Shown: in pieces, positions 26,734-46,733 of the stretch
Layout: each line of letters begins with the position of its first letter
How positions within the stretch are numbered: position 1 is the stretch's first letter
Origin: an uncultured virus (IMG/VR IMGVR_UViG_3300032829_000007)
Taxonomy: Duplodnaviria > Heunggongvirae > Uroviricota > Caudoviricetes
IMG/VR virus record: IMGVR_UViG_3300032829_000007
DNA length: 64,000 nucleotides
Strand: one strand, 5' to 3'
Program-made: the position numbers and the translations under genes
Notes under the pieces: model-generated
What the model saw: only the letters and a program-made list of their open reading frames with translations
Database searches by the model: none
Told to the model about the DNA's origin: nothing

Positions 26734-27006
26734 ATGAATAAAATATATTTAAAAGAATTATATCTTACATATCCTGTTGAAGAATTATTTAATGATTTAA
26801 CAAATGGCATTGTTAGATCAAATCATTTAAATTATATATATTATTACAATGAAAATGATATACTTATTTTTCAATATAATAAAAAAAATGATATGTTTTG
26901 GTGTTCTTATAGTGAATATTGGAGTTCTTTTTATGAAAATTTTAAATTAGATAGATTATCAATTGAACATATTACAAAAGATTTAATAAAAAATATTTTA
27001 AATTAA
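26734..27006 (+). CDS. KELYLTYP family protein with decayed, frameshifted repeat-coding tail
   Basis: Paralog of 28162/45392/46320; 3' sequence reads YFKLNQIIP in a shifted frame versus HFKLKGITP. Confidence 0.65.
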   Translation: MNKIYLKELYLTYPVEELFNDLTNGIVRSNHLNYIYYYNENDILIFQYNKKNDMFWCSYSEYWSSFYENFKLDRLSIEHITKDLIKNILN

Positions 27007-28161: not shown

Positions 28162-28479
28162 ATGAATAAAATATCATTAAAAGAATTATATTTAACATAT
28201 CCGGTTGAATCTTTATTTTATCAACTTACAAAAGATTTAATTATTAAAATTGATAAAGATAAATATCCTAATTGGATATTTTATTTTAATCAAAATGATA
28301 ATTGTATTTTTGAATACAATACAAAAAATGGATATTTTTGGTGTAATTATAAATTATATTGGTCAAATTTTTATGAAAAATTTGGTTTTAATTATAATCA
28401 AGTCAGAGATTTAACAAAAGATATGGTGGAAAACCATTTCAATTTGAAGGAAATTACACCTTTTATAAACAAGAATTAG
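28162..28479 (+). CDS. KELYLTYP family protein, array-associated
   Basis: Ends in VENHFNLKEITP encoded by the first 36-nt repeat; stop lies in spacer 1. Confidence 0.75.
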   Translation: MNKISLKELYLTYPVESLFYQLTKDLIIKIDKDKYPNWIFYFNQNDNCIFEYNTKNGYFWCNYKLYWSNFYEKFGFNYNQVRDLTKDMVENHFNLKEITPFINKN

Positions 28480-28752
28480 ATAAATTTCTTGGTGGAAAAC
28501 CATTTCAATTTGAAGGAAATTACACCTGGCTTTGAATTTCCTTTGCCTGAACAGGTGGTGGAAAACCATTTCAAATTGAAGGAAATTACACCACGTATTT
28601 CAATTTAAAGGAAATTACATCTTACTGGCTTTATGCCCACATGATAGATGAAATAGAAAGCCATTTCAATTTAAAGAAAATTACGTCTAGCAATTTTCAT
28701 ATGGTCAATACAATAAGATAGAAAATTATTTTAAATTTAAGAACATTAAATA
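28425..28752 (+). CRISPR. CRISPR-like mini-array A (36-nt repeat GGTGGAAAACCATTTCAATTTGAAGGAAATTACACC)
   Basis: Repeats at 28425, 28491, 28557, partial 28597, degenerate 28652 and 28717; unique spacers of 30, 30, 30 and 29 nt. Confidence 0.8.
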
Positions 28753-29484
28753 AAAAAAATAAAATTTTAAATAAATTTTTATTTTTAAAAATAAATTACT
28801 AATTTTACTATTTATAAAAAACAATTATTAGATGTTTTGTCTATATTGTAATAGTGAAATGGTTTTTATTAGTAATACTGAAGGAGATTATTGGTATTGC
28901 TCTAAATGTAAAGAAATACATTTTATTTACTCACCTTTAAATATTTAAAACATGAAAACATATAAATTAATTTATTTTCCAATAGCTATTTTGTTATGTG
29001 GATTATTTTATTATCTTAGTAGTAAAATTTATTTTTTTTATTATATTAGTATTGGAATTTTTTATTTAATTGCTATATCTACTATAATATTGTTTATTAT
29101 TGGAGTTAAAAATTCTTTTAAAAAATAATATTATTAATTATAATTTTTATTTTAAAATTTTTATTATGAAAATAAAAAATTTTGAAAGATTTGATTTTAA
29201 TGGAATTAAAATTAATGGTACTTGTTATGAAATTATTGAAAGAAATGAAGAAAGAAGATATATATGTGAAGTTATTGATGATGATATCATATATAGAAGT
29301 CAAGACACTGATTTAAATATGTGCATTGATTCATTAAAAGAATTATTTTACATAACAAAAAATATTAAAGAATTTAATGTTATTCATTTATATAATTAAA
29401 TAAGATTTTTTTTATAAAATTTAAATTTTTATTTGCATATTTCCATTTTAATTTATATTTTTGAATTATAAATTTTAATTACAA

Positions 29485-29831
29485 ATGGAAATAAATTTAA
29501 ATAATGTTTATTGGGAACGTATTAGAGGATTTGTATCTGAAAATAAAATAGATGCTCGTTGGAAATTAAGAAAAGAAAATGATAATAGAACATATGGTTC
29601 TTTAAGAATCGTATCTCATCCTGATTTAAAACCTGGGTATTTACGTTCAATATTTACTTATGTTACAAAAATAGATCCTAACAAATTATAAAATCTCTTG
29701 AAGATTTTCAAATGGAAGATATTGAACTTGAAGTATATTCAGTTAATGAAAATATAAAAACAGAAACAAAAACAATTGAATTACCTTTTAAAGAACTTGA
29801 ACAAATGTATAATGTTAAAATATTTGAATAA
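29485..29831 (+). pseudogene. Frameshifted hypothetical gene
   Basis: ORF stops at 29691 but a shifted frame from about 29682 (QIIKSLEDFQMED..VKIFE) is open to 29831. Confidence 0.5.
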
Positions 29832-29846
29832 TAAATAAAATTTAAT

Positions 29847-30167
29847 ATGATAAAAAAAGAAAAAATTTATATTTCTGGTAAAATTACTGGATTAGATCTG
29901 AATAATGTTGAAAAGAAATTTCAAGAAAGTGAAGATTTTTTAAAATCTTTAGGATATAAAAATATTATTAATCCTCATAAATTACATCCATATATTGAAG
30001 GTAAAAAATGGGAAGAATATTTAATTGATGATATTAAATTATTATTTGAATGTGATATAATATATCTTCAAAATGATTGGGGTTTATCTAAAGGTGCAAG
30101 ATTAGAATATACCATTGCTAAAGAATTAGGATTAAAAATAATGTTTGAAAATGATTTAAAAAAATAA
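29847..30167 (+). CDS. DUF4406-like (nucleoside deoxyribosyltransferase-fold) protein
   Basis: IYISGKITG..INP..CDIIYL..W..SKGARLE. Confidence 0.8.
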   Translation: MIKKEKIYISGKITGLDLNNVEKKFQESEDFLKSLGYKNIINPHKLHPYIEGKKWEEYLIDDIKLLFECDIIYLQNDWGLSKGARLEYTIAKELGLKIMFENDLKK

Positions 30168-30192
30168 AATATTAATATTAAAAATTATAATT

Positions 30193-30951
30193 ATGTCATT
30201 AATAGGAATTTCTGGATATGCATATAGTGGTAAAGATACTGTAACTAGAATTATTCAATATTTAGATTGGGTTAATAATCAAAAACCAACTCCAACAATT
30301 TCATTTGAAAATATGTTAAAACAATTAAATGATGGAGAATTTGATTCATTTGATCAATATAGTAAATGGAAAAATGTAAAATTTGCTGATAAATTAAAAG
30401 AAATAACTTCTTTATTAACTGGAATTTCAAGAAAAGATTTAGAAAAACAATCTATTAAAGAATCTTTTTTAGGATATGAATGGGATTATTATATTGTTAA
30501 ATTATATGAAAATTCACCTAAAGATTATGCAGATCATCAAACAATTATTTGTGATGAAAATACAATATCAAAATATTTAAATAATGATGATCATAAAATA
30601 GAAAAAAAACAAATGACTGTTCGTGAATTTTTACAAAAATTAGGAACAGATGCAGCAAGAACTAAACTTCATCTGAATTGTTGGGTTAATTCATTATTTT
30701 GTAATTATACTGTTGATAAAAAATGGATAATATCAGATTGCAGATTTTTAAATGAAGCTAAAGCTATTAAAAATAATGGTGGAATTATTATTAGAATAAA
30801 TAGAAATGATCAAATTTTAAAAGACAGACATATTTCTGAAACAGAACTTGATAATTATCAATTTGATTATATTATAAATAATGAAACAAATAATTTTGAA
30901 AAATTAGTTGATGATGTAAAAAAAATTTTAATTAAAGAAAATTTATTATGA
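30193..30951 (+). CDS. Deoxynucleoside monophosphate kinase
   Basis: GISGYAYSGKDT, FADKLK, REFLQKLGT, ISDCRFLNE, HISE. Confidence 0.85.
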   Translation: MSLIGISGYAYSGKDTVTRIIQYLDWVNNQKPTPTISFENMLKQLNDGEFDSFDQYSKWKNVKFADKLKEITSLLTGISRKDLEKQSIKESFLGYEWDYYIVKLYENSPKDYADHQTIICDENTISKYLNNDDHKIEKKQMTVREFLQKLGTDAARTKLHLNCWVNSLFCNYTVDKKWIISDCRFLNEAKAIKNNGGIIIRINRNDQILKDRHISETELDNYQFDYIINNETNNFEKLVDDVKKILIKENLL

Positions 30952-31904
30952 ATTATAAACCTTTTGATTATAATGATATTAATTTAATACCTAAATTGTG
31001 TATTGTTAACAGTAGATCTGAATGTGATACCAGTATTAAATTCGGAGATTTTGTATTTAGAATTCCTGTTATTCCAGCTAATATGGAATCTGTTATAAAT
31101 GAAGAATTAGCTATTAAATTAGCAATGAATAATTATTTTTATATTATGCATAGATTTAATATGGATATATTAAAATTTATACAAAAAATGAAAAATTTAA
31201 ATTTATATACTTCTATATCAATTGGCGTTAATGAAGATTCATATCAATTATTAGACAAATTATTAAAACAAAATTTAATACCCGTTTATATTACAATTGA
31301 TATAGCACATGGCCATTGTATTAAAATGGAAAAAATGTTAAAATATTTAAAAGAAAATTTTAAAGAAACATTTATAATTGCTGGAAATGTATCAACTATT
31401 GAAGGTACACAAGATTTAGAGAAATGGGGTGCTGACGCTATAAAGGTTGGGATTGCCCCTGGCAGCTCGTGCACGACATGGAATATTACTGGCTTTGGTA
31501 GTAGAAACATTCAACCATTTATAATACAAGAATGTTCCAAACATACAAATAAACCAATTATTGCTGATGGCGGAATACAAAATCCTTCGGATATAAACAA
31601 ATCAATTGTTATGGGTGCTTCAATGGTTATGGTTGGTGGTATGTTATCTTGTTTTATGGATTCTCCCGGAAAAGAAGTTGAAAAAGATGGAATTATTTAT
31701 AAATCATTTCATGGTTCTGCTTCTGAACATCAATCAAATAAAAAAAATAGAATTGAGGGAACATTAAAATTAAATAAAATGAAAAACATTGAATTATTAG
31801 ATTATATGGATTACTTAAAAGAATGTTTACAAAGTTCTATTAGTTATGGTGGTGGAAATAAATTAAATGATCTTTATAATGTTGATTATATAATAACAAA
31901 ATAA
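30948..31904 (+). CDS. guaC: GMP reductase
   Basis: FDYNDINLIP, SRSECDT, PANM, ITIDIAHGH, KVGIAPGSSCTT, IIADGG, LQSSISYGGG. Confidence 0.9.
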   Translation: MNYKPFDYNDINLIPKLCIVNSRSECDTSIKFGDFVFRIPVIPANMESVINEELAIKLAMNNYFYIMHRFNMDILKFIQKMKNLNLYTSISIGVNEDSYQLLDKLLKQNLIPVYITIDIAHGHCIKMEKMLKYLKENFKETFIIAGNVSTIEGTQDLEKWGADAIKVGIAPGSSCTTWNITGFGSRNIQPFIIQECSKHTNKPIIADGGIQNPSDINKSIVMGASMVMVGGMLSCFMDSPGKEVEKDGIIYKSFHGSASEHQSNKKNRIEGTLKLNKMKNIELLDYMDYLKECLQSSISYGGGNKLNDLYNVDYIITK

Positions 31905-32692
31905 TGAATAATAATTATAATATAAATGAATTAGTTAATAAATATTCTAATGTATTAGAATTAATTCCAAATCATAAGCAACATAATAATTTAGCTCTTT
32001 TATTCGAAATATCTATTAATTATATAAAAAATAATTTTAACAATGTTAATATTAATATTAAAATATCTGCTGTTTATGTTATTAAAGAATTATATCTAAA
32101 GGGATTTATTTCATCAGATAATGATTGTGAAATCATAATTAATGATTTTATGAAATTTTATAATGAAAATTATAATAATTTTATAAATGAATTTGATAAT
32201 AATATTGATAAACACGATATAAATATGCTTTTTATAAAAAAATATTTAAATAAAAATTAATGGAAAAGCCAATAAAATATATTAGATTTAAAAAATTATT
32301 AAAAAATGAATCTGAAATTCAAATTTTTTTAGATGAAATTATTGAAAAAGGTCTTATTATAATTAAGTATATTGAAAAAATAAATACAGATGTAATTGAT
32401 TTTCAACTTCAATATGAAATAATTGTTGTTTGTGCAAAATATAATTAAGTTTTTGTAACATTAAAATTTTTTATTCGTAATATAGAATATTAACTTTAAA
32501 ATTTAAAAATAATGAAAAAATTTAAAAAGAAATATTTTTTATATTCCGAAGAAGTAATTGATTTTGTTAACAAAAATTATAAAATTGAAGCTATTTCAGT
32601 AACACCAGCAACAGATACGCCATCAAGAAATGGTTTTTATTTATTTTATTTTGAATTTCATGAAATTTAAAAAATAAAAATAATATATAATA

Positions 32693-33121
32693 ATGAAAAT
32701 TACTTGTGGCTTATTTATTATTTCGAATAATAAACTTTTAATTGTCCACCCAACAGGACATAAAAATAATTCATGGTCAATTCCTAAAGGAATATTTGAT
32801 GAAACTATTGATAAAAATCATTTTGATGCTGCAATAAGAGAAACATTTGAAGAAACAAATCTTAAAATTGATATATTAAAAGGTAAAATTAAAGATTTAG
32901 GAATTGAAAAATATGAAAAAAGAAATAAAAGTTTACATGGATATTTATATATTTCATTTGATGATATAACAAATGAATTATTAAAATGTAATTCATTTTG
33001 TGAATTATATAAAAAACAAGTTCCTGAAGTTGATAATTTTAAATGGATTAATATAGATTCAGAATATATTAAATTTTTACATGATACACAAAAAAAATTA
33101 TTTAAAAAAATAAATTTATGA
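32693..33121 (+). CDS. NUDIX hydrolase
   Basis: WSIPKG..AAIRETFEETNL Nudix box; PEVD..W. Confidence 0.85.
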   Translation: MKITCGLFIISNNKLLIVHPTGHKNNSWSIPKGIFDETIDKNHFDAAIRETFEETNLKIDILKGKIKDLGIEKYEKRNKSLHGYLYISFDDITNELLKCNSFCELYKKQVPEVDNFKWINIDSEYIKFLHDTQKKLFKKINL

Positions 33122-33902
33122 AAAAAACATTTATTATTGCATATGAAGTTTATGATAATAAAAATAATATTATCAAAAATGGAAATATGAAATGTAAAAA
33201 TAAATTTACTGAGTTAGATGCTAAAATAAGTTTAGAAACATTTTTAAAAAAGAAATATAATAATTTTTATAAATTAATTATTCTTTCATGTAAAGAAGAT
33301 AATATATTTTCAAATTTTAATGATATATTTTCATCAAATAATTTTTAATAATATATTTAATAATTTTAAAAAATAATAATATTATGAAAACAAAAGAAAT
33401 TCCAAGATGCCAACAAATACAAATAGAATATAAAGCTAATTTAAATATTTTACAAGAAACAATTGCATCTATTAATAATGGTAATCCAATATCAATTGAT
33501 ATGTTTAAAAAATGTATGGAATTTTTATATCGTGAAGGATGGTGTGATTGCTTTTTATGGGATGGACAAGTATCTGGTGAACAAACTCGTAAAGAATTTT
33601 TTAAAATATTGGATATTGAAAGATATGGTAGAAATGATAAATAAATTTAAAAAATAATATTATGAAATTAAATTTAAATTATAAAAATACTAATATTGAA
33701 ATAACATATGATGAATATGGCTGTTTTGAATATGTTACAAATTTAGATACTAATGAAAAAATGACAATTGAAATATATCAAACTGGAAAAGGATATGAAA
33801 TAAAAGAAGAAAATAGATTTATTACAACAAAAGTATGTGATGTAAGATATGTTAAAATTATGGAATTAAATATTTTTATACCAAAATTTATATTTATTAA
33901 AA

Positions 33903-34541
33903 ATGAATAAATTTACAATAACAGAAAAATCAAACATTTGGATTAGTTCAGATTTACATTTTTCACATCGTAATATGTGCAAAGGCACATCTACATGGAA
34001 AAGTGGATTTCGTGATTTTAATACTATTGAAGATATGAATAATACAATTATTAATAATATTAATAAATATGTATTAAAAGATGATATATTTTTTATATTA
34101 GGAGATTTAACTTTTGGAAATCCTTATAATTTAATATTATTAAGAAAAAATATTAATTGTGAAAATATTTATGTTATTCTTGGAAATCATGATAAAGGAC
34201 TAAGAGATAATAAACCTATTAAAACAGAAAATGGTTTAGTTTATCCACAAACTTTATTTAAAGAAGTTACTCAATTTAAAAAAATATATGTTGATAAACA
34301 AGCAATAGTTATGAATCATTATGCATTTAGAGTTTGGGATAATTCTCATCATGGTTCTTGGAATCTTTATGGTCATAGTCATGATTCATTACCTCCAATA
34401 GGAAAACAAATGGATGTTGGCATCGATACAGCATTTAGAATATTTGGAGAATATCGTCCATTTTCATTTCAAGAAATAAAAAATATTATGGATACTATTG
34501 AAATTAAAATTATTGATCATCATAATAACGAAACAAATTAA
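33903..34541 (+). CDS. Calcineurin-like metallophosphoesterase
   Basis: SDLH, LGD, GNHD, GHSH. Confidence 0.85.
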   Translation: MNKFTITEKSNIWISSDLHFSHRNMCKGTSTWKSGFRDFNTIEDMNNTIINNINKYVLKDDIFFILGDLTFGNPYNLILLRKNINCENIYVILGNHDKGLRDNKPIKTENGLVYPQTLFKEVTQFKKIYVDKQAIVMNHYAFRVWDNSHHGSWNLYGHSHDSLPPIGKQMDVGIDTAFRIFGEYRPFSFQEIKNIMDTIEIKIIDHHNNETN

Positions 34542-34996
34542 AAAATTTTATAAAATAATTTGGATAATTAAATAATTTATTTAATTTTGTAATTAATTTA
34601 AAATTTTAAATATATGGAAAATTTAAATAATGACAAATGTATCATTCTTAAAAGAAAAGAATATGATGAATTATTAGAAAAAGCTAATAGCAAAAAACCT
34701 GATTATATAGAAATAAATTTAGGTAGTGGATATTTTTATAATAGCATTAATTTAAATATTTCAGAAAATTTAGAATTATCAACTAAATTACGTAATCAAA
34801 TATTAAATATACTTAAATTACATAAAAATAATTTAATTAAAATTATTAATGATAATAATAATAAAATATTAAAAGAAGAAAATTATTTTATTTCTTTATT
34901 TGAAAAATTACCTTGGTATAAAAGATTATTTTTTAATGAAAAATATATAAAAAATAATTTGTATTTTTAAAATATTATATTTATCTTTGTTTTTTA

Positions 34997-35224
34997 AATG
35001 GCTATATAAAAAGTTACTTCTAAAAACTTTGGCGTTTAATTACTTTTTATAATTTCCATTTTTTATAAGTTCTTTAATAGGCTATTGTAAAGATTACTTC
35101 TATACGCTTGGTATGCTAAAAATATTTTTACAGATTTCCTATTTTTAATAAAGCTGGCTATTAATAAGGTTACTTCTACTACAATCTTTCGAATTGACAA
35201 TTACTTTATTAAATTTCCAGCTTT
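34997..35224 (+). ncRNA. Three tandem structured RNA units (GGCTAT..TTACTTCTA..ATTTCC)
   Basis: Units 34997-35060, 35076-35143, 35150-35224 with invariant motifs and compensatory stems. Confidence 0.7.
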
Positions 35225-35257
35225 TATTTTGTTAATAATTTTAAAATTAATTATATT

Positions 35258-37444
35258 ATGAAAAACATTATTGCTTTTAAAAAAGGATTATTTATACCAG
35301 ATTTAAATGATAAAGGTATATTAGATAGTTTACAAATTGTTGCTTCAATACAGGCAGAATTAATGAATCTTGGATATATTTTATCTAAAGATGCTTTTAA
35401 TATATTAAAAGATTCCTCAAATAAATTTTGTATTTCATATTATAATGAAATTATTCCCTTTTTAAATAAAACTTTAGGTAATTCTAAAAATTATCAACCA
35501 TTCTATAAAAATTTTCCAACACAAGTAATGGAAATGTCAGATATTGAATTATATTTAAATGCTATAATTCATTATTGGAGCTGTGGTACATGGAAACCAA
35601 CTTATGAATTAAAAGAAAGAGGTTATGCTTTTGAAAATGTTGAATTTAAAGAAATAAAATTAGGAACAGAAAAAGATTTTACAAATATTTTTACAAAATT
35701 AGTTTCAATAAATCAATCATTAACAGAAGATGATAAAGAAATTGTTGAATGGTTTATTAAAAATTATAATGTAAATAAAATATTACCTGAAGTAATAAAT
35801 TTTAAGGAAACACTTTGTTTATTGGCATCTAATAATGTTGATGTACCTATTAAAACAACAACAGATGTTTTAAGAATTGCTACATATATGTCTGGTGGAG
35901 ATATTTCATTACCACATATTCCAAAAGTCACAATAAATGAAGTTAGAAATAATAGAAAAGAATATTTCTTTAATAATCTTAAAGAATCTCAAATTAAAGA
36001 AAGAGAATCTTTTAAATTTAAAAAATTTAATCGTAAAGAACGTAAATATTTATTAGGATTATTAGAAAAAAGTAATCTTGATACTTCTGAAATGCAAATT
36101 TATTTAGGACGTTGGTTACGTCTTGGAGAAATATTACATCCTGGAGAATATAAAAATAAATTTTTTATAACATATATTACTTTTGATAAATTAAGAAATC
36201 AAGGAAAAGTAATTGATGTAAAAGGACAAATAGAATCTTATAAATATGAAAAAATAAGAACTTTTAATAGTCAAGTTAATCAAGCTTTTAATAAAAATTT
36301 TTATAATGGTGTTAATTTATTAGCAACAAGACCAGGAGAATTTGCAAGAAAACTTGATTGGATAATAAGAAATTGTCGTTCTAAAATAGAAATTAATATT
36401 AATGATGTTAATTTTGTTTTAAATAAATTTTTAAAAATATCTAATAAAATTAGTAATAAAGTTTTATTTGAATTATATAAACATTTTGAAAATAGAACAA
36501 AAGAAAATTATGTTCGTTCAATAATGATAAAAGGTAAAAAATCTAAAATGAAAATATTAGATCCTTTACCTCCATTAAATATTAAAATTGTTGATAATAT
36601 AAAAAATATTATTAAAGAATGTTTAATAAATAAATTTAAAAAATATGAATTATTAGGAAATGTTTATATTGATGAAAATTTAAAAAATATTCCTTTACCA
36701 TTTTCAATGAGAAGTATTAATACGTCAATTAAAACATATATTAGAGGAACAAGAATTCCTTATAATAAGGATGCTAAAGTAATACGTCCATTTATTCATT
36801 GGTTTGATGAAAAAGGAAATGAAGATTTAGATTTAAGTGTTGGATTTTATGATAAAAATTTAAATGGAATAACACATATCTCATATACTAATTTAAAAGA
36901 TAATAATCTTAATTCTTGTCATAGTGGTGATGTTAGAATGAGACAAGGAGCATGTGCTGAATATGTTGATATTGATATTAATAAATGTAAAGAAAATAAT
37001 GTTCGTTATGCTATTGTTCAAGTTCATAATTTTCAAGATAGACCAATGCATACAATGAAAGATTGTGTTTTTGGATTAATGGAAAGAGAATTTCCAGAAA
37101 GCAATAAAATATTTGTTCCTAAAACAATAACAAATTGTATGACTATAAGTAATGAATCATCAACTGTTAATATTTGTATTATTGATTTAGAAAATAATTG
37201 TTATATTTGGGCTGATATAGAATGTCAAAATAGTGGATTATCAAATTTTGAAAGTACTAAAGATAAAACTTTAGATGTTTTAAAATCATTAACTCAAGAC
37301 ATTAGTTTTTCTGTGTATGATCTATTAAAACTTCATGCTGAAGCAAGAGGCTATTTAGTTTTTTCAAAAGAAGAAGCAGATATTATTTTTAATTTTGAAG
37401 ATTTTTATACCGATTATGCTAAAATTGGAACATACATGAATTAA
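35258..37444 (+). CDS. Large protein with C-terminal TerD-like domain (resembles MXAN_6230/SCO0854-type family)
   Basis: PFYKNFP, TTTDVLR, RPGEFARKLD, FIHW..DLDLS, HSGD..GACAEYVDID. Confidence 0.65.
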   Translation: MKNIIAFKKGLFIPDLNDKGILDSLQIVASIQAELMNLGYILSKDAFNILKDSSNKFCISYYNEIIPFLNKTLGNSKNYQPFYKNFPTQVMEMSDIELYLNAIIHYWSCGTWKPTYELKERGYAFENVEFKEIKLGTEKDFTNIFTKLVSINQSLTEDDKEIVEWFIKNYNVNKILPEVINFKETLCLLASNNVDVPIKTTTDVLRIATYMSGGDISLPHIPKVTINEVRNNRKEYFFNNLKESQIKERESFKFKKFNRKERKYLLGLLEKSNLDTSEMQIYLGRWLRLGEILHPGEYKNKFFITYITFDKLRNQGKVIDVKGQIESYKYEKIRTFNSQVNQAFNKNFYNGVNLLATRPGEFARKLDWIIRNCRSKIEININDVNFVLNKFLKISNKISNKVLFELYKHFENRTKENYVRSIMIKGKKSKMKILDPLPPLNIKIVDNIKNIIKECLINKFKKYELLGNVYIDENLKNIPLPFSMRSINTSIKTYIRGTRIPYNKDAKVIRPFIHWFDEKGNEDLDLSVGFYDKNLNGITHISYTNLKDNNLNSCHSGDVRMRQGACAEYVDIDINKCKENNVRYAIVQVHNFQDRPMHTMKDCVFGLMEREFPESNKIFVPKTITNCMTISNESSTVNICIIDLENNCYIWADIECQNSGLSNFESTKDKTLDVLKSLTQDISFSVYDLLKLHAEARGYLVFSKEEADIIFNFEDFYTDYAKIGTYMN

Positions 37445-38146
37445 AACATAATTATGTATAATTTATTAAATATTAGTGCTTGGCTAATTTTTGGCTTAAT
37501 ATCTTATTTTTTATTAAATAAATTATTTGATACTAAAAAAGATTATTTTTTATTAATATTATGTTTAATTTTTGGATATGTATCATTTGGAGCATATTTA
37601 GGAAATTTATTTTATTATAAAATTTTAAAAAATAAATATTAAATGAAAACTATTGAAGTAACTGATGAAATGTATGATTTTTTAATTAATTTATCAAAAG
37701 AATTAAATAACCAAGATCATAGATGTACTGCAATGCCTTATTTTTTTCAAATACAAACAAATGAGGAAATAGCAGTTCCAGAAGGAAATGGAAATGAAGC
37801 ATGGTATAATGATGGAATTAAATTAGAAGGAGAAGATGAAATAAATGATTATATAGCTGAATATCAAGATAAACCAATAGAAGAAATTATTTATAAAGAA
37901 GATTGGGAAAAAGAAGAAATTTTAGAAAATGCTGGATGGTATAAAGTTTATTATGATTATGAACATAGATATCAAAATGCATTTTTTACAGAAAAAGCAT
38001 GTAAAGAACATATTAGATTAAACCATTATCATTATAATGAACCAGTGGATTATTTATCTCATGCTTTTAGAAATCCTGAATTAGAAATGGTTTTAAAATT
38101 TATTTGTGAATTAACAAATGAAAAATTACATACTTAATAATATATT

Positions 38147-38878
38147 ATGAAAGAAATAATTATAGATAACGAAAAATATTATATTCTTACAGTTAATGAA
38201 TATAATGAATTAAATAATGAAAAATATAAAAATATTGATTATGATAATTTTGAAATATTAGCAATAAAAAATGATAAAAAAAATATTATATATAATAAAT
38301 ATAAAGATAATAACTTTAATGCTGATTATTTTGATTTAAAAAATTGGATTGTTTTTTCTACTGATATAAATAATGTATATTCAATATATAAAATAAAATA
38401 TAAAGATATTATTTATTGCATTGGTGATATTGTGAAAAATGTATTAACAGGTAAAACATATAAAATAACAAAAATATTTTTTGATAATACAATAGAACTG
38501 GATAATATATATTTATTACATTTTTCATATATTGAAAAAATAAATATAAATGATTATATTTATAAAACATTTGATAATATTGAAATTTATGATCCAGAAA
38601 CTGAACTATATGGTGTTTGTATTAAATCTCAATGGGAAACAAAAACAATTAAATTAAAAAATTTACTCAATTCATTAAAATATAATTGTTCATCATATAA
38701 AAAAGATACATGGTTATTTTTTGCAAAAGAAGAAAATAGAAATAAATATATTGAAGAAAATAGGCCAAACTATTCTTTAAATAACATAAAACAAGCAGCT
38801 ATTGATATATATGGAGAAAATAAATTAAATTTAAATAATTTTTTAGATAAAATTAAAATTTATAAAAATTTAAAATAA
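38147..38878 (+). CDS. Hypothetical protein, paralog of 51142..51867
   Basis: Shared MKEII.DN.KY..LT, IGD.VKN, T.D..EI.D, KY.EEN. Confidence 0.6.
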   Translation: MKEIIIDNEKYYILTVNEYNELNNEKYKNIDYDNFEILAIKNDKKNIIYNKYKDNNFNADYFDLKNWIVFSTDINNVYSIYKIKYKDIIYCIGDIVKNVLTGKTYKITKIFFDNTIELDNIYLLHFSYIEKININDYIYKTFDNIEIYDPETELYGVCIKSQWETKTIKLKNLLNSLKYNCSSYKKDTWLFFAKEENRNKYIEENRPNYSLNNIKQAAIDIYGENKLNLNNFLDKIKIYKNLK

Positions 38879-38886
38879 TATAAGTC

Positions 38887-39075
38887 ATGATGACAGATGA
38901 ATCAATAATACCCTTTGGTGAATATAAAGGTACTAAATTAGCAAATGTTCCTGCTAATTATTTATTCTGGTTATATATGAATAATAAATGCTATGGTGAA
39001 TTAAAAGATTATATTGAAGATAATCTTGATGTTATTAAATTTGAAATTGAAAGTTTCAATAAGTATAATAAATAA
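38887..39075 (+). CDS. Small PFGxYKG domain protein (DUF3820-like)
   Basis: IPFGEYKG..VPANYLFW. Confidence 0.7.
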   Translation: MMTDESIIPFGEYKGTKLANVPANYLFWLYMNNKCYGELKDYIEDNLDVIKFEIESFNKYNK

Positions 39076-39345
39076 AATAATTTTTTATATGGGTTATAAT
39101 GTATTTTTTGAACAAATTAAGGTAGAAATTAATGATTCATTATATAATTTATATTTTAATGATTTAATGAATATGAAATATGAAGATTTTTATAATAATG
39201 AATTAAGTTTTGAAAATAAAACTGAAGGATATTATAATATTTTATTATTAAAAGAAACTTTAGAATATTATTCAAATAAAGAAGAATATAAAAAATGTGC
39301 TGAATTAATAAAATTAAAAAATAAATTTAATATAGAATTTTAATA

Positions 39346-40284
39346 ATGAATGCAGATAGATTTATTTATTTAACTGAAGCAAAAGGAATTCCAAATATTA
39401 TAAAATTATTAACAGATAAAATATATGAAAAATATATTAATTATCCTAAAAATGAAATAATATATGATAATGACGAATATAGATATTCTATTAAAATAGA
39501 TAAAAATGAAATAGAAAATAGTTTTTTTGAAAATTTATTTTTATATATTATATTAACAAATAATAAATCTAAATCATCATATTACAAACATAATTTATCA
39601 AATTGGAATGATAAATATAAAATATTTGATAAAATTATTATTCAAATATTTTTAGTAAAAGAAAATTTAGATGATTTAAAGGAAATTATTTCACATGAAT
39701 TGCATCATGCATTTGAAGATTATAAAAGAAAATTAAATACAAATAAAAATTTTAAAGATGTTGATTCTAATTTAATTTCAACAGAAACAGATGAATTAAT
39801 TACAATAAGTAATAAATTTAAAAATAATTATAAATTAAATAAATTATCTGCATTTATTTATTATTTATTAAATATTGAAAAAAAAGCAAATATAAGTAGA
39901 TTATATTATGAATTAAAAAAATATAATTTAACAAAAAAAGATATAAATAATAATGAATATCAAAAATTATTTTTTTATAAAATTTATAAAGAAATAAATA
40001 ATAGCACAGAATCATTAATAAATTCATTAAATAAAGAAGAATTAAATTTATTTAAAGAATATATTAAACACACATCTATAAATAATTTATACTCAAATGA
40101 TGATAATATTTTTAAAAAAAGAATTATTAATTATTTAAAAAATAATTCTGAAGAAATATTAAAAAAAATGAGAAAAATAATGATTGAATATTTAGAAGAT
40201 GAAGATTTAATGGAAACAAGAATATCAAATAAACAAAAAATGTTTGAATTATTATTAAATATTGAAAAGAAAATAATAAATTAA
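39346..40284 (+). CDS. HExxH putative metallopeptidase
   Basis: ISHELHHAFED with downstream E..A. Confidence 0.5.
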   Translation: MNADRFIYLTEAKGIPNIIKLLTDKIYEKYINYPKNEIIYDNDEYRYSIKIDKNEIENSFFENLFLYIILTNNKSKSSYYKHNLSNWNDKYKIFDKIIIQIFLVKENLDDLKEIISHELHHAFEDYKRKLNTNKNFKDVDSNLISTETDELITISNKFKNNYKLNKLSAFIYYLLNIEKKANISRLYYELKKYNLTKKDINNNEYQKLFFYKIYKEINNSTESLINSLNKEELNLFKEYIKHTSINNLYSNDDNIFKKRIINYLKNNSEEILKKMRKIMIEYLEDEDLMETRISNKQKMFELLLNIEKKIIN

Positions 40285-40639
40285 ATTTAATATACTATAA
40301 CATGAAAATACAAATTGATGATTTACAAAAAACAATTAAGATTGAAGAAAAAGTAAAGCTTGATGAATTATTTAAAAAATTAAATATTTTATTTCCAAAT
40401 GAAACATGGAAAGAATATGAGCTTGAAACAAATAGTGTTATTGTAGGATGGAAAGATCCTATAATAATAACAGAACCTTACCCAATATATCCAATACCAC
40501 AGCCATTACCTTGGCATTGGTGGCAACCTACAACTATTTCTTATGATTATTTATTATCAAATAATTCATCAAATAATTGTATATATAATGTTGAATATTA
40601 AATAATATAAAAAATAAAAATTATTTAAAAATTAAAATT

Positions 40640-41077
40640 ATGAAAACAAAATTGTTTACAGTATTAGTTTCAATTATTTCTTTAAGCATAATATTATCTT
40701 GTTCTGTAATTAAACATGATAATAAATTATTAAACAGCAATTTATCATGGAGAGATAAAATAACATATGAATTATATTTAAAAAAGAATTTTTATAGAAA
40801 AGATCATAAGAAATATGAAATTGCTTATAAGATATTATTACAAGAAAAACTATTTGGAGTTGGATATGATTTTGATAAAGATAGTGTTATTGATGCTTAT
40901 GTATTTTATGATTTAAATAAAATAAATGTTACTAAAGAAAAAATTTATTCTAATGATAAAGCAAAATCAATTATTATAAATTATGATGAAAATACTTATT
41001 TAATTTATGTTTCAACAAATAAGAAAAATTTAGATTATAGATATTTTCAGCCAAAAGATAACTCAACAAAATTATAA
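40640..41077 (+). CDS. Putative lipoprotein
   Basis: Signal peptide ending IILS-C. Confidence 0.55.
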   Translation: MKTKLFTVLVSIISLSIILSCSVIKHDNKLLNSNLSWRDKITYELYLKKNFYRKDHKKYEIAYKILLQEKLFGVGYDFDKDSVIDAYVFYDLNKINVTKEKIYSNDKAKSIIINYDENTYLIYVSTNKKNLDYRYFQPKDNSTKL

Positions 41078-41444
41078 TTTATACATTAATTTAAATTTTA
41101 TAACATATTATATTTATGTTTTATTTTATATAATATGTTATAAATTTTTATTTTCTTATAACAAATTTTTTATTTTTCCGTATTATAAAAAAAATTATAA
41201 TATGATAAAAACTAAAGAATATAAAAGTAAAGTAATTGAAAGAATATTAAAAGAAGTATCTAAAATGCCATTAGAAAGAAGATTAAAAATTCATCTTGAA
41301 ATGGCTGATATTAAATATTGGGATAATGGTAAATATAATGGTGATATTTCTGAACAATTAAATCATTTACTTGATATAATTGAGGATTGGAGTAAAAACA
41401 AAGCACTTTTAAGAAATAAAAAATAATTTAAATTATATTTTATT

Positions 41445-42248
41445 ATGATTAAATCTTTAACCATATTTAAATCAACAAAAGGTTTTACCAGAAAACTTTA
41501 TCATCATAATAATAAAGATGTTACTTTTGAATTTTCACCCGATATAAATATTATTACAGGAAGAAATGGAAGTGGAAAAAGTATTTTATTAAAAATAATT
41601 AAAACTCATTGTTGTATTGATGATTCTACATACCCAACAATGGTTCATCCAGTAAATATTAGAAAAGGATTTTTTGAAAATGATTATTATACCATTCTTG
41701 AATATATTAATAAGAAATTAAAAAATTATAAATTTCCAAAATCTAAATTAGAATGGGATGGTAATATTATTCATTATTTAACACCAGAATATTTTAGTCC
41801 TAGTAATATGTGGGATAAATTAGATTCACCATATAAATTTGATAATAAAGAATTATATGGTATTGGAGATGTTATTTTAAATTTTATTGATAATAAATCA
41901 AAAGGTGAAAATGTTATTCAATTATTAAATAAAATTAATAATTTAAATATTCAATATAATGAACCATTAAAAGATGTTAATGATGTTTGGCAAAAAGCTG
42001 ATAATATTTTTCAAAATTGGTTAAATTCTTTTTCTAAAGAAGGAAAACCAACATTACTTATAGATGAATTAGATACAAATCTTGATTTAGATAATCAAAA
42101 ATATTATTGGGATTATATTCAATATTTAACTAAAAAATGGCAAGTAATTGTTATTAGTCATTCTATTTTTGCATTTAAAAAAGAAAATGTTAATCATATA
42201 AGATTAAATGAAGAATATTTTAATAAAATAAAAAAATTAAAAATATGA
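41445..42248 (+). CDS. ABC-type ATPase (stand-alone)
   Basis: GRNGSGKS Walker A, SKGE signature, LLIDELD Walker B, ISHS. Confidence 0.8.
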   Translation: MIKSLTIFKSTKGFTRKLYHHNNKDVTFEFSPDINIITGRNGSGKSILLKIIKTHCCIDDSTYPTMVHPVNIRKGFFENDYYTILEYINKKLKNYKFPKSKLEWDGNIIHYLTPEYFSPSNMWDKLDSPYKFDNKELYGIGDVILNFIDNKSKGENVIQLLNKINNLNIQYNEPLKDVNDVWQKADNIFQNWLNSFSKEGKPTLLIDELDTNLDLDNQKYYWDYIQYLTKKWQVIVISHSIFAFKKENVNHIRLNEEYFNKIKKLKI

Positions 42249-42618
42249 ATTATATATATAAAAATTTTATTTGACCACTTACAAAAGATGGAATAGAATA
42301 TCAAAAAAAACAAATTAAAATATCTAAATGTAAACATAAAAATTGGAATTGTGATAAACAAATAAGAGTTATTGAATGTAAAGAATGCGGTTTACGTGCA
42401 TGGATAGATGATTATATTGATTTATTTTAATAATAAATTTATGAAATATTGTGAAAATTGTGGCTGTAAAATTTTTAATGGAAAATGTGTTAATTGTCAT
42501 GAAGAATTATTCATTCTTGATCAATATTATGAAATAGGAATGAAATTACCAGATAAAAATTCTAATTTCATGAAAAAAGTAAAAGAACATGAACATGAAA
42601 AAGAAATAAATAATAAAA

Positions 42619-42849
42619 ATGGTATACACAGATAAAATACATTTGGTATCTGATTCAATTAATGAACTACATGAATTTGCTAATTTAATTGAATTAAAAA
42701 AGTATTACTATCATGGTTTTAAAAAGGAACATCCACATTATGATTTAACAAATAATGAAATTTTAAATAAAGCTATCAATAATGGAGCAATTATAAAAAA
42801 CTCAAAAGAAATATTATTAATAAGTAAAAAAAGTAAATTAAATAAATAA
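42619..42849 (+). CDS. DUF4031-like protein
   Basis: HLVSDS..ELHEFA..HPHYDL..GA. Confidence 0.75.
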   Translation: MVYTDKIHLVSDSINELHEFANLIELKKYYYHGFKKEHPHYDLTNNEILNKAINNGAIIKNSKEILLISKKSKLNK

Positions 42850-44357
42850 TTTAATATTATGGAAAAATCAAAAGAAGAAATTTTTTTAGAAAGATTAAAA
42901 TTATTAAAAAAGGATCAAGGATGTTTTTCATATACAAATGAAAAAAAATGTTATAATAATGCAATTAATGATACTATAGAATTATATGAAGAAATTATTT
43001 TAGGAATTAAAAAAAGAAAATATTCAAGTGGTAATACTGGTCCAAGATAAAATAATTAAACATTAATATAACAATTTTAATTTTTTTTCGTATTATATAA
43101 TGAAATATTTAAATTTAATATTATGAAAATTTTAATAAAATTGTTTTTTATTTTCCTTTGTTTTAATATTTATTTATCTTATTCTCAAATAAGAAATGAA
43201 GCAGTTATTGATAAGTTATTAAAAAATAAATTTAATGAAAATTACTTAAATACATATTGTATTCATTTTTATTATAATAATGAATTATATGTTTTATCTT
43301 ATGATTCTGATAAAGACTATAATAATTTATCTCAAAGACCTATTTTTTTATTTAAAAAAGATAGTAATAATTGGAAATATGCTTCAGAATTAATGTTTGT
43401 TTCAAATATTAATTATAATAATAGTATTGAATTTATGGATTATCCATATCCTAAAGCAGGAAATACCATTGTTAATATTTTAGATAATGATTGCGTGCTA
43501 TTATCAATGTCATATAGAGAAAATATTATGGGAAAAAATTATATATACCCCATTATTGTATTATTAATTCCAAATTTTAAAAATAATACATTTAAACATA
43601 TTATTTTTATACCTAATAGAAATAATAATAGATATGCTATTGATTTAAATGTTATTAACAATAATGAATATTCTATATTAATGAATGATAAAACTAATAT
43701 TAATATTAAATTTAATTTATTAAATTTAAATAATTTAAAATATAATATTGATTTTATTGATCAATTAGGAAATATTATGAATATAAATAATTAAATTATG
43801 GAAACATTAAAAACAGAAGATATGAAAAAATATATTGATTTTAAAAACTCAATATATAATATTTTAAATCAAAATATTGAAATTAATATAACATTAAATA
43901 ATGAAAATGGATATATAAATCCGATTAATATTTCATTAAATAGAATTTTAAATCAGCGTAGAATATATGCAATGACATATATTAATTCTAATTTAGATGA
44001 TGAAAATAAAAAATATGTAGAAGAAATAATATCTAAATTAAATGAAGAAATTATAAAAATAATAGGATTATATACATTATAAATAATTTAAAATATATGA
44101 AATATAAAGATAAAATTTTAATGTTATTAGAAATTATAGCATTATTATTTTTAGGCATTGCATTAATTTCTATTACATATAAAGTATATTTTATAATATT
44201 TCTTTGCTTTTTTGGTATTGGATTATCTATTTACCTAGCAAATATATTAAAATTTGATAAATATGAATGAAAAAATAGAACAAGGAATACCTTGTAAACA
44301 TTGTAAAACAATTCCTCATTATATACAATGGTGTAATGGCGGAGGAGAAGCTTATTA

Positions 44358-44579
44358 TACAATGAAAATAATGGATATTTTTGGTGCAATTATAAATTAT
44401 ATTGGACAAATTTTTATGAAAAATTTGATTTTAATTGGCAACAGGTTAGAGATATAACAAAGGATATGGTAGAAAACCATTTCAAATTGAAGGGAATTAT
44501 ACCCCATGAGTGTTTACGTTTATTACATATTAATGGTGGAAAACTATTTCAATTTGAAGGGAATTTTATTTTGAATTAA
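44358..44579 (+). pseudogene. 5'-truncated copy of the KELYLTYP family gene
   Basis: Frame YNENNGYFWCNYKLYWTNFYEKFDFNWQQVRDITKDMVENHFKLKGIIP lacks its start; about 75 nt before the repeat are identical to the 45392 gene. Confidence 0.7.
44468..44570 (+). CRISPR. CRISPR-like mini-array B (2 repeats, one 31-nt spacer)
   Basis: Repeats 44468-44503 and degenerate 44535-44570. Confidence 0.7.
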
Positions 44580-44639
44580 CCTAATATTTAAAAAGAAAAT
44601 AAATAAAAAAAATAATTAAATTATGATTTAAATAATATT

Positions 44640-45395
44640 ATGAATAATAAATATAATTTTCCTGACTTATTAAAAAAGATTACATTTAGAACAACAACAT
44701 ATAATAAAAATTTTGATATTATTGGAAAATATGAATCTTTTATAACAGAACATACTGGTGTTATATCATTGGTTAGAATCGGTGAAGAAAAACCAGCTAC
44801 TCAAATTGGAGAATATTATATTAGTTCATTTAATTTTGAATTAGCTAAAAAATGTGATATTGATTTAACCAAATCAATATTAAAGCATAAAAATGAAGAT
44901 TCTTATAATGATTTAATAAATTTAATAAAAAATAATGAACTTAATTTAGAAAATTATAATAAAATTATATATATCAATAATTTTATTATAAAACCAGAAT
45001 ATAGAAAAAAGGGTATTACAGAAGAATTTATTGAATATTTATTTAGAAATTTTTATGATAAAAAATCATTAATAATTTGTTTAGTTAAACCATTTCAATT
45101 AATAAATGATGATTATGATTATTTTTTAAAAACAAAAAAAATAGAAGTAAAATCATTTATTGGAGAAAAATCATATAAAATAGTATCAGCTAAAGAATAT
45201 TATTCATTAGATGATTTAAAAAATGTTAAAGATATTGAATTAAATAAATATAAATTATTTGCATTAGCTGTTAAATGCGGATTAAACAGAATTAATGATA
45301 GTTATATATTTGCATTTAATCCTAAAAATGAACTAATAAAAAATATTAAATTAAAAGCTAAAGAAAAAATAAAAGATAATTTATTTAATAAATGA
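44640..45395 (+). CDS. GNAT-fold-like protein
   Basis: YINNFIIKPEYRKKGI acetyl-CoA-binding-like motif. Confidence 0.5.
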   Translation: MNNKYNFPDLLKKITFRTTTYNKNFDIIGKYESFITEHTGVISLVRIGEEKPATQIGEYYISSFNFELAKKCDIDLTKSILKHKNEDSYNDLINLIKNNELNLENYNKIIYINNFIIKPEYRKKGITEEFIEYLFRNFYDKKSLIICLVKPFQLINDDYDYFLKTKKIEVKSFIGEKSYKIVSAKEYYSLDDLKNVKDIELNKYKLFALAVKCGLNRINDSYIFAFNPKNELIKNIKLKAKEKIKDNLFNK

Positions 45396-45814
45396 ATAAA
45401 ATATATTTAAAAGAATTATATTTAACATATCCTATTAAGGATTTATTTCATCAACTAACAAGAGATCTTGTTATTAAAGTTGATAATGATAAATTTCCAA
45501 ATTATATATTTTATTTTAATGATAATAATTGCATTTTTGAATACAATAAAGAAAGTGGAAATTTTTATTGTAATTATAAATTATATTGGACAAATTTTTA
45601 TGAAAAATTTGATTTTAATTGGCAACAGGTTAGAGATATAACAAAGGATATGGTAGAAAACCATTTCAAATTGAAGGGAATTACACCGCAACAATGGTAT
45701 TGTCTATGGAGCAACATGGTAGAAAACCATTTCAAATTGAAGGGAATTACACCTTTATGGCTAAAATCTAATCGATACTTTTGGGTAGAAAACCATTTCA
45801 AATTGAAGAATTAA
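45392..45814 (+). CDS. KELYLTYP family protein translated through its array
   Basis: VENHFKLK x3 separated by spacer-encoded decapeptides. Confidence 0.75.
   Translation: MNKIYLKELYLTYPIKDLFHQLTRDLVIKVDNDKFPNYIFYFNDNNCIFEYNKESGNFYCNYKLYWTNFYEKFDFNWQQVRDITKDMVENHFKLKGITPQQWYCLWSNMVENHFKLKGITPLWLKSNRYFWVENHFKLKN
45652..45808 (+). CRISPR. CRISPR-like mini-array C (GGTAGAAAACCATTTCAAATTGAAGGGAATTACACC)
   Basis: Identical repeats 45652-45687 and 45718-45753, truncated third at 45784; two 30-nt spacers. Confidence 0.8.
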
Positions 45815-46319
45815 TGGACGATATAAAAATATATAAAATAAATTTTAATTTATTTTAATAATTAAAAAATTTTAATTAACTTTGTAACTTAAATTTTAAT
45901 ATAATAAAACAATGAATTTAATAAATAAAATTTTTCAAAGACGTTATCGTATTGTTGCATATAATAATAGAATGTATAAAGACTATAGATTTATAAATAG
46001 TCAGAAATATACATATTTTGGAGTAAAAGAATGGATTGAAAAAAATGGTGATAGGGATAGATATTTATATAATTTTTATGATATAATAACAAAAACTCTT
46101 TTATATAATTATGAAAAAATGATTAAAGAATATGAAGAAGTAAAAAAGGTTATTAATGATTATAGAATTAATGGTAAGCATGAAGAAACTCTATTAAATT
46201 ATATTTTTAATTTTAAAAATAAATGGGAAAAACATTACTCAAAAAAAGCACCGCAAATATATTTTGAAGATTTAATGGTTTTATATAATGAAAAATTTAA
46301 ATATTATAAAAAATATTAA

Positions 46320-46733
46320 ATGAATAAAATATTATTAAAAGAATTATATTTAATATATCCTGTTGAGAATTTATTTCATCAACTAACAAGAGATCTTGTT
46401 GTTAAAATTGATAAAGATAAATATCCTAATTGGGTATATTATTTTAATAATGATAATAATTGTATTTTTGAATACAATACAAAAAATGGAGATTTTTGGT
46501 GTAATTATAAAAAATATTGGACAATTTTTTATGAAAAATTTGGTTTTAATTATAATCAAATCAAATATTTAACAAAAGATATGGTAGAAAACCATTTCAA
46601 ATTGAAGAGAATTACACCCCTGTATCAGCAATTTGATGAGAATGGCCTAGGTAGAAAACCATTTCAAATTGAAGGTAATTATACCAGAATTAATGATATT
46701 AAAACAAGTGATATAAATAAAAATTTATTTTAA
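46320..46733 (+). CDS. KELYLTYP family protein, array-associated
   Basis: Close paralog of 28162 and 45392; the 31-nt spacer shifts the frame in repeat 2. Confidence 0.75.
   Translation: MNKILLKELYLIYPVENLFHQLTRDLVVKIDKDKYPNWVYYFNNDNNCIFEYNTKNGDFWCNYKKYWTIFYEKFGFNYNQIKYLTKDMVENHFKLKRITPLYQQFDENGLGRKPFQIEGNYTRINDIKTSDINKNLF
46583..46685 (+). CRISPR. CRISPR-like mini-array D (2 repeats, one 31-nt spacer)
   Basis: Repeats 46583-46618 and 46650-46685. Confidence 0.75.

Follow-up and report, generated by a model that had tools for sequence, protein, structure and literature searches.

Gene-embedded CRISPR-type arrays in AT-rich T4-like jumbo-phage DNA

A stretch of 64,000 nucleotides (nt) from an uncultured virus of the Caudoviricetes (IMG/VR record IMGVR_UViG_3300032829_000007), here called the window, was found to carry four short arrays in which a 36-nt repeat alternates with unlike spacers, and the first repeat of an array is also the 3′ end of a small protein-coding gene, here called the family gene. 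The arrays are of CRISPR type and not ordinary coding repeats, because their spacers are of foreign origin, the arrays are polarised and the repeat is constrained as a nucleic acid. What is new is that a conserved gene provides the leader together with repeat 1, and that the array is maintained in a translatable state. They are probably the cas-less arrays of an AT-rich T4-like jumbo phage, with the gene as leader, which provide guides against competing phages to a Cas protein acting in trans. For comparison, related loci and contigs from IMG/VR and metagenomes were used (numbered L001-L033); the window and about 223 kb of related contigs together made up the ~287 kb of related T4-like jumbo-phage DNA compared.

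The arrays of the window and their carrier gene

The 36-nt repeat pattern, with up to three mismatches allowed, matched the window eight times, always on the + strand and distributed over four loci, and no match occurred in 100 dinucleotide-preserving shuffles. The four loci and eight differing spacers reported in a preliminary description of this DNA were recovered; the spacer length, there given as 29-31 nt, was 30 or 31 nt for all eight, no two of which are alike. Degenerate and truncated repeat copies all lie distal to the intact ones, in agreement with the decay away from the gene described earlier. The loci are composed as follows.

28162..28479, + strand: family gene copy 1 (105 amino acids, aa); repeat 1 supplies its last 12 full codons and the stop lies inside spacer 1
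28412..28424, + strand: 13 nt immediately 5′ of repeat 1, TAACAAAAGATAT; may signal the leader-repeat junction, also the codons T-K-D-M
28425..28592, + strand: intact part of array 1; three repeats (28425, 28491, 28557) and two spacers (28461-28490, 28527-28556)
28593..28753, + strand: array 1, decayed distal part; truncated 29-nt repeat (28593-28621), spacer 28622-28651, repeat 28652-28687 (9 mismatches), spacer 28688-28717
44358..44467, + strand: family gene remnant lacking its 5′ part; the final ~48 codons, without a start in frame, stops upstream
44468..44570, + strand: array 2; repeat at 44468, 31-nt spacer 44504-44534, degenerate repeat 44535-44570 (7 mismatches)
45392..45814, + strand: family gene copy 3 (140 aa); its open reading frame (ORF) spans the whole of array 3, with the stop in the truncated terminal repeat
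45652..45808, + strand: array 3; two repeats (45652, 45718) and a truncated one (45784-45808), spacers 45688-45717 and 45754-45783
46320..46733, + strand: family gene copy 4 (137 aa); the ORF goes on through array 4, its frame shifted by the 31-nt spacer
46583..46685, + strand: array 4; repeats at 46583 and 46650, 31-nt spacer 46619-46649

At the distal end of array 1, what follows the last spacer is a remnant too degenerate to be called a repeat, and the spacer of array 4 was also found in L011. A common trailer (AATTAATGGACGATATAAAAATA) stands after the truncated terminal repeat of different arrays (window 45809-45830; L001, about 405-440).

The first repeat encodes the last 12 codons (VENHFKLKGITP) of the paralogous family gene of about 100 aa and makes up codons 88-99 of an intact ORF in three loci (28162-28479, 45392-45814 and 46320-46733). 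The earlier statement that every array begins inside such a gene holds for these three of the four loci; the array at 44468 is preceded by a gene remnant. Wherever upstream DNA is present, in the window or its relatives, the array comes after a copy of the family gene, and the array L013:17 begins at the end of its contig. Several related contigs end within the family gene, as is expected because it is a repeated element. Mean pairwise identity of the pre-repeat stretch was 0.968 among 20 copies, the top 12-nt bin within 120 nt upstream; being the best conserved part of the upstream DNA, the 13 nt before the repeat fit a leader-repeat junction signal.

The family gene is coding. Its 19 diverged copies contain no in-frame stop, compared with 5-9 and 14-21 stops in the other frames, and the indels among the copies are whole codons. 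The protein of copy 4 is identical to the database protein P0005, and the close homologs form 22 clusters, all metagenomic and without Pfam hits, each of which has the same terminal motif followed by variable tails. No family name for the small protein was obtained from Pfam, PHROGs or PADLOC. A confident AlphaFold2 model was obtained, made up of two helices, four strands and two helices (predicted local distance difference test score, pLDDT, 81.8). Foldseek found no informative relative of the model in the PDB (best E 0.22), a wide VIA-align search reached a best Z of 3.8, which is not evidence for a new fold, and the ESM Atlas gave no usable match. In BFVD the model matched only uncharacterised proteins annotated as 'uncultured Caudovirales phage' (best E 2.2e-4, TM 0.55-0.66). 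Two further paralogs in the window have no array.

26734..27006, + strand: array-less paralog, 48% identity; C-terminus ...ITKDLIKNILN
16332..16664, + strand: distant array-less paralog, 26% identity (tblastn E 2.4e-5)

At the second locus, a 64-aa ORF with a CxxC...C motif (44263-44457), unrelated to the family, overlaps the gene remnant in another frame. It may represent either a frameshift fusion or an unrelated gene in place of the 5′ half.

Spacer turnover, spacer origin and constraint on the repeat

Across the window and its relatives, 29 arrays with 81 spacers were counted, 57 of the spacers being unique, and the longest array had 10 repeats (L017). Exactly 30 nt was the length of 51 of the 57 unique spacers, and the others were 29, 31 or, once, 18 nt long. 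The mean GC content of the spacers was 0.29 against 0.20 for the loci.

New spacers enter the arrays gene-proximally. The loci L010 and L019, whose flanks are identical in 300/300 nt upstream and 299/300 nt downstream, have spacers 2-6 in common and differ in the gene-proximal spacer 1. For the pairs L009/L017 and L014/L018 the common spacers are gene-distal only, and the distal repeats are degenerate in arrays of the window and of its relatives alike. The leader position proposed earlier for the gene was borne out.

The spacers are of foreign origin and were copied from related phages. Non-array DNA within the 287 kb was matched by 6 of 56 spacers with at most three mismatches and by 8 of 56 with at most five; ten rounds of shuffled spacers gave no match at the former threshold and 0-1 at the latter. 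The eight protospacer matches (30/30 twice, 29/30 twice, 27/30 twice, 25/30 and 24/29) all lie in related AT-rich phage contigs. The protospacers are located in unrelated genes, for instance ribonucleotide reductase, and their flanks do not match. According to the preliminary description, ordinary coding tandem repeats would be recognised by spacers fixed across relatives and by a lack of protospacers; the opposite was found, namely spacer turnover between relatives and protospacers in related phage DNA. Two of the protospacers are in the window.

11210..11239, + strand: protospacer of spacer 1 in the L010 array at 10261 (27/30), within the ORF 10521-11321 (- strand)
19533..19562, + strand: protospacer of spacer 7 in the L017 array at 2938 (29/30), within the ribonucleotide reductase gene

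The window spacer 28461-28490 in turn matches L031 at 10027-10056 (- strand) in 27/30 positions, in an IS607-like region between the resolvase and tnpB genes. Except at their own array positions, the window spacers match the window nowhere. Exact 23-mers of three mid-GC window spacers had no match in IMG/VR, a comparison of 50,697 isolate phage records with the arrays of L013, L017 and the window yielded no hit under E 0.1, and there was no convincing match between the spacers and the related 72-kb phage described below. The first base 3′ of the protospacer was G in 4/8 and G or C in 6/8, no more than a hint. Provided that array and gene are transcribed together, the spacers are antisense to 2/7 genic protospacers and sense to 5/7, which argues against mRNA targeting in that orientation; the proportions are reversed if the other strand is transcribed.

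The repeat is under constraint at the nucleotide level. At third codon positions, the first repeat had a GC content of 0.364 (72/198), compared with 0.099 (157/1581) for the gene body (Fisher p 6e-20), and in one copy with a decayed array it was 0/11 in the repeat, the peptide still being similar.

A single 18-nt spacer, again a multiple of three, occurs at L010:16495-16512 and also in L019 and L020, where the ORF crosses the entire array (157 aa). At L018:13090-13185 one spacer is found twice running, a duplication of the repeat-spacer unit. Of the 51 spacers of 30 nt, about 12 have AT as their last two bases (manual count on translations), which with the first G of the repeat restores the ATG found before the first repeat in the gene; this may reflect the true repeat boundary or a preference in acquisition.

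Translation of the arrays and distant homologs

A repeat-spacer unit of 66 nt equals 22 codons, 12 of the repeat and 10 of the spacer, so that the frame is kept at every acquisition. Selection keeps the spacers free of in-frame stops: of 56 spacers, 40 are open when read in the frame of the gene, whereas the remaining forward frames leave 28 and 23 open and those of the reverse strand 25-28; 20,000 shuffles yielded 24.1 ± 3.6 open spacers and none attained 40 (binomial p 1.7e-5). The triplet TGA was present once in the gene's frame and 11 and 17 times in the others, TAA 14 times against 21 and 27. Since these triplets differ while the base composition of the spacers hardly varies between codon phases, the deficit is codon-specific and no effect of base composition. 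The codon phase of the source genes was also considered as its cause and rejected, in that 3/4 sense protospacers begin with the first position of a codon, and the frame to which this corresponds is the one richest in stops.

Among the spacers contiguous with the ORF 29/37 are open (binomial p 1.3e-5), and beyond a stop or frameshift 11/19. The contrast between the two groups is not significant (Fisher p 0.13), as is expected if every spacer was once first. At L013:6052 a single ORF runs through 6 spacers. In-frame stops are present in 16/56 spacers, and spacers of 29 or 31 nt shift the frame. The proposal in the preliminary description that spacers diversify the C-termini of the proteins gained unexpected support from the deficit of stops in the gene's frame, and the 16 spacers with in-frame stops count against it.

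A search with the family profile among 1.84 billion proteins returned 841 representatives with E <= 0.001, of which 120 passed the stricter limit of 1e-10. Ten of the 841 were looked up, all of them metagenomic and without an informative name, and in Pfam no family was above threshold for 20 distant homologs. The terminal motif of the distant members reads V-E-[EK]-H-F-K-x-K-x-V-T-P, and among 149 hits it recurred with a period of 22 residues in 30/37 successive motif pairs. Up to six repeat-spacer units are in frame in the protein P0140. A 760-aa ORF on a 148.5-kb metagenome contig (P0023) has five tandem copies of the domain with 1-3 repeat-spacer units after each, and copies 2-5 each lack a separate start codon. 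The members of one 90% cluster were alike in the domain and entirely different in their tails. Of 145 ORFs, 30 stop 6-11 residues into the last motif copy, which places the stop in a truncated terminal repeat. Tails from protein databases are ascertained as ORFs and are no independent measure of the stop deficit.

Through the protein P0042, a record of 72,414 bp with direct terminal repeats and 44% GC was reached (L033, the 72-kb phage), which has one family gene with a 2-repeat array. Its repeat is identical to that of the window in 28/36 positions and the gene bodies in 24/86 residues and 137/258 bases; the stop of the ORF overlaps the start codon of the next gene. The module is old and widespread, the design of a gene with a 22-residue repeat recurring across 841 distant protein clusters.

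Cas genes, competing explanations and known systems

Searches with Pfam for Cas1, Cas2, Cas4, Cas6, Cas9, Cas12a and Cas13 revealed none in the 65 ORFs of the window or in 146 and 73 ORFs of related contigs, PADLOC found none of these families in 64 ORFs, of which 14 were from the window, and the 76 ORFs of the 72,414-bp record had no cas or TnpB hit. The absence of cas genes from the window, noted at the outset, was confirmed and extends to the scanned ORFs of related contigs and of the 72-kb phage. These negatives cover the ORFs scanned, and since the two related records rated by CheckV (38 kb and 54 kb) amount to just 12% and 17% of their jumbo-phage genomes, a distant cas locus is possible; the same values put the genome size at ~300 kb. 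An anti-repeat such as the trans-activating CRISPR RNA (tracrRNA) of a type II array would have was not found in the 287 kb, where minus-strand matches to the repeat did not go beyond 12 nt (E 0.35); a host-encoded tracrRNA is possible.

The sole relatives of RNA-guided nucleases were five TnpB-like ORFs in some of the related contigs (L014:2037-3269, L014:9905-10933, L009:4511-5530, L030:12694-14022 and L031:10115-11191), with HTH_OrfB_IS605, OrfB_IS605 and Cas12f1-like TNB domains, and a serine resolvase lies just upstream of one of them (IS607-like). The ORF L014:2037-3269, 2.3 kb from an array, was called Cas12f by PADLOC at E 3.6e-61. Neither the window with its four arrays nor the 72-kb phage has a TnpB-like ORF.

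The window has a GC content of 18-22%, and its genes form a large T4-like phage set in Pfam, including an intein-containing ribonucleotide reductase, dNMP kinase, GMP reductase, a sigma-70 factor and an FtsH-like protease; genes for a gp23-type capsid and a gp20-type portal are present in related contigs. A Bacteroidota host is plausible because the nearest isolate capsid is that of a Flavobacterium phage (39% identity). The ribonucleotide reductase large subunit (18968-23449, 1493 aa) holds an intein with a LAGLIDADG domain, and the portal gene L026:5657-8833 of a related contig is also intein-bearing. A 156-nt tandem repeat (23471-23913, 2.8 copies, 75% match) lies inside a 257-aa ORF (23454-24227) with a GIY-YIG nuclease domain at its C-terminus. 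The region 17196-17570 encodes a small protein of 124 aa in which Pfam recognised an RF-1 domain (E 1.2e-20), release-factor-like or of the ribosome-rescue type. Immediately 5′ of gene copy 1 is a gene for pyruvoyl-dependent arginine decarboxylase (27631-28158), and immediately 3′ of array 4 one for an FtsH-like protein with AAA and M41 peptidase domains (46769-48685). Promoter and terminator scans of this AT-rich DNA gave counts at or below shuffle level, except for one minus-strand terminator-like site, and were uninformative.

The evolution and use of the arrays may be depicted as follows. Each array is embedded in the 3′ end of a gene of the phage-specific paralogous family, which would supply the leader, its last 13 pre-repeat bases and its last 12 codons (repeat 1) forming the leader-repeat junction. 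New 30-nt spacers, taken from related phages, would be inserted at this junction, and the ORF would grow by exactly 22 codons per addition. The guides would be loaded onto a Cas effector, from the host or from some region of the ~300-kb phage genome beyond the sequence at hand, and would attack co-infecting competitor phages. Among the alternatives listed in the preliminary description, guides for a host or trans-acting Cas effector fit the results best, and virus-borne cas-less arrays directed at related viruses are a precedent (PMC6858448, PMC7162821).

Several observations weigh against this course of events. A Cas effector or integrase was identified nowhere in the window, the related contigs or the ORFs of the 72-kb phage, and for this reason we infer, rather than observe, that a Cas1-Cas2-type integrase writes the spacers and that Cas in trans uses them as guides. 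Just one of the eight spacers of the window itself has a match (27/30). The flanking motif looked for did not emerge, as the eight protospacers have mixed 5′ flanks and no consensus for a protospacer-adjacent motif (PAM). Nor was the repeat, for which the preliminary description had proposed a comparison with CRISPR repeat databases, traced to host arrays or an Rfam family: a 21-mer of it gave four single, non-repeated hits in species-representative genomes, in DNA of 37-57% GC and judged to be chance; a 32-nt pattern with up to three mismatches, which is blind to L033-like repeats, was found in 0/401 sampled Bacteroidia genomes; and array 1 had only chance-level hits in Rfam (E <= 10), with no CRISPR-DR family. 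For L009/L017 and L014/L018 the upstream gene is just 262/300 and 272/300 identical, and their differences could be explained by recombination between paralogous copies of gene and array instead of acquisition. The ratio of nonsynonymous to synonymous variation (pN/pS) of the gene body was 0.79, indicating weak protein constraint or mosaic evolution. Finally, guide use alone predicts neither the deficit of stop codons nor the conservation of the repeat peptide across 841 clusters.

The last point leads to the role of translation. Our favoured guess is a purpose at the transcript level, where translation would avoid a long untranslated stretch in the operon or stabilise the precursor RNA. It is conceivable, though we hold this view only tentatively, that the array is part of the ORF in a widespread, hitherto unrecognised phage module in which translation or the spacer-encoded peptides are integral to the system; co-translational loading of the repeat RNA, and protection or anti-termination of the guide precursor, are possible roles, and in the ~95-aa domain one might then have a CRISPR-associated protein of a new sort. 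A rather unlikely explanation is that the integrase writes foreign 30-mers in frame and that the product, the ~95-aa domain with its 22-residue modules, is itself functional, for which a hypervariable protein might be envisaged, or one that assembles with its own repeat RNA during synthesis. The open spacers and the near lack of TGA in the gene's frame, the openness of ORF-contiguous spacers including the six at L013:6052, the 22-residue period of distant homologs with the six units of P0140 and the five domains of P0023, and the ORFs that end shortly into the last motif copy would all be accounted for. Against it, in-frame stops and frameshifting spacers make translation dispensable in many copies, and decapeptides read from out-of-frame or antisense foreign DNA are effectively random. 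The contrast between spacers at risk and those after a break is not significant either, the tails in the protein databases are ascertained as ORFs, and the AlphaFold2 model is without an informative structural relative.

RNA anti-CRISPRs made of solitary repeats are a known idea, and the arrays might be decoys, the repeats sequestering host Cas or the junction diverting the host's spacer integrase, with spacers as a by-product. We consider this very unlikely. Their lack of cas genes, their dispersal in multiple copies (4 loci in 64 kb) and the short, often decayed arrays would suit a decoy, as would the lack of carrier-targeting spacers in the window, expected if self-targeting copies are purged; but arrays reach 10 repeats and the spacers match related phages, not random or host-like DNA. 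Retention of G/C codons only in intact arrays fits any role at the nucleic-acid level and does not single out a decoy. Little credence can likewise be given to the idea that the arrays serve the phage-encoded TnpB/Cas12f-like nucleases in a type V-U or V-F-like manner. One of the five ORFs lies near an array, TT stands directly 5′ of 4/8 protospacers, and V-U and V-F variants are reported in huge phages (PMC7162821). The domain sets and the neighbouring resolvase, however, look like IS605/IS607 elements, such ORFs are missing from the window and the 72-kb phage, and there was no anti-repeat in the 287 kb and no repeat fragment near the TnpB-like genes. Least tenable is a 22-residue repeat protein with fast-evolving linkers and no CRISPR biology at all, even though it would accommodate the in-frame 66-nt period, the repeat peptide conserved over a very large family, and the lack of cas genes and of an Rfam CRISPR-DR match. 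It is already contradicted by linkers that copy unrelated genes of other phages, out of frame and with unmatched flanks, by the shuffles, which gave none at up to three mismatches, and by near-identical loci that differ by a whole spacer; stops and frameshifts inside arrays and the synonymous G/C retained in the repeat also oppose it.

On the preferred explanation, guides for Cas in trans with the gene as leader, the arrays belong to the kind described for archaeal viruses and huge phages. Known cas-less viral arrays, however, have been treated as non-coding cassettes with a non-coding leader, whereas here the leader is a conserved gene. The literature searches returned no natural precedent for a gene-embedded, translated array, although the supplementary tables of PMC7162821 might list some. 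The repeat is doubly constrained, as a nucleic acid, by rare G/C codons held against extreme AT pressure, and as a peptide, by a motif kept over 841 clusters. If the translation is functional, CRISPR adaptation and protein coding would be linked, for which the literature searched offered no example. Gene callers absorb such arrays into ORFs, and surveys of phage CRISPR may therefore miss a large class; the conserved family gene is a handy search tag for them. The arrays are also a record of the phages that compete in a community.

Non-canonical (ectopic) spacer integration creates new arrays and might account for the way in which a stretch of repeat-like coding sequence came to seed one. Such a one-off accident leaves a module found in 841 protein clusters, with several paralogs per genome, unexplained. 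An engineered adaptation reporter (PMC5583386), the nearest item in the literature searched, also has its integration site in a coding sequence, so that spacer integration alters translation; that is a laboratory construct which uses a change of frame, whereas the present arrays occur in nature and preserve the frame, 66 nt being 22 codons. The VIPR systems of phages (bioRxiv 10.64898/2026.10.15.759431) are similar in being phage-borne RNA-guide arrays in conflicts among mobile elements, with orphan guide loci in phages that are without the protein. As an explanation they were rejected, their tandem 5-bp GGYNN units and non-contiguous code, as described in that preprint, being unlike units of 36+30 nt.

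The relation to type VI-B (Cas13b) proposed in the preliminary description was upheld in part. The hallmarks of this type are 5′-GUUG...CAAC-3′ ends, a poly-U loop and a 36-nt repeat with a 30-nt spacer (Smargon et al., 10.1101/092577), and the VI-B systems of Bacteroidota (10.1101/092577; Hoikkala et al. 2021, PMC8092290) share with the present arrays the 36-nt repeat, the 30-nt spacer, the 66-nt unit and complementary ends. We also count as a likeness that VI-B loci are often without Cas1/Cas2, with spacers acquired in trans (10.1101/092577; PMC8092290). The 36+30 geometry fits several class 2 types, VI-B among them. The repeat studied here ends in GGUG or GGUA and CACC or UACC (GGUR...YACC) instead of GUUG...CAAC, its loop AUUUCAAAUU is no poly-U loop, and its folding does not surpass that of shuffled sequences (z -0.25 to -1.3). 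No Cas13b was found in the phage DNA scanned, and the strands of the protospacers, with 2/7 antisense, speak little for mRNA targeting as long as array and gene are transcribed together.

The compact arrays of huge phages (Al-Shayeb et al. 2020, PMC7162821) are often cas-less and have a median of six repeats. Like the arrays described here they belong to jumbo phages, most are without adaptation genes and many without effectors, and some of their spacers are directed against other phages. A gene-embedded or translated array or a conserved leader gene is not mentioned in the parts of that article considered here, and its supplementary tables may list similar arrays. A further parallel is offered by the mini-CRISPR arrays of the Sulfolobales viruses SPV1 and SPV2 (Medvedeva et al. 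2019, PMC6858448), which are cas-less and aimed at related viruses. In common with the present arrays they have no viral cas genes and are short, with a leader; spacers in the same position differ in close relatives, spacers match close relatives, some of them near arrays, and host Cas is proposed to act in superinfection exclusion. They differ in being intergenic, in archaeal hosts and in repeats that match known host arrays, no host array having been found here with the 21-mer or in the sample of 401 Bacteroidia. In the jumbo-phage arrays, by contrast, the first repeat codes for part of a conserved gene, up to 10 repeats are present, and the spacers avoid in-frame stops.

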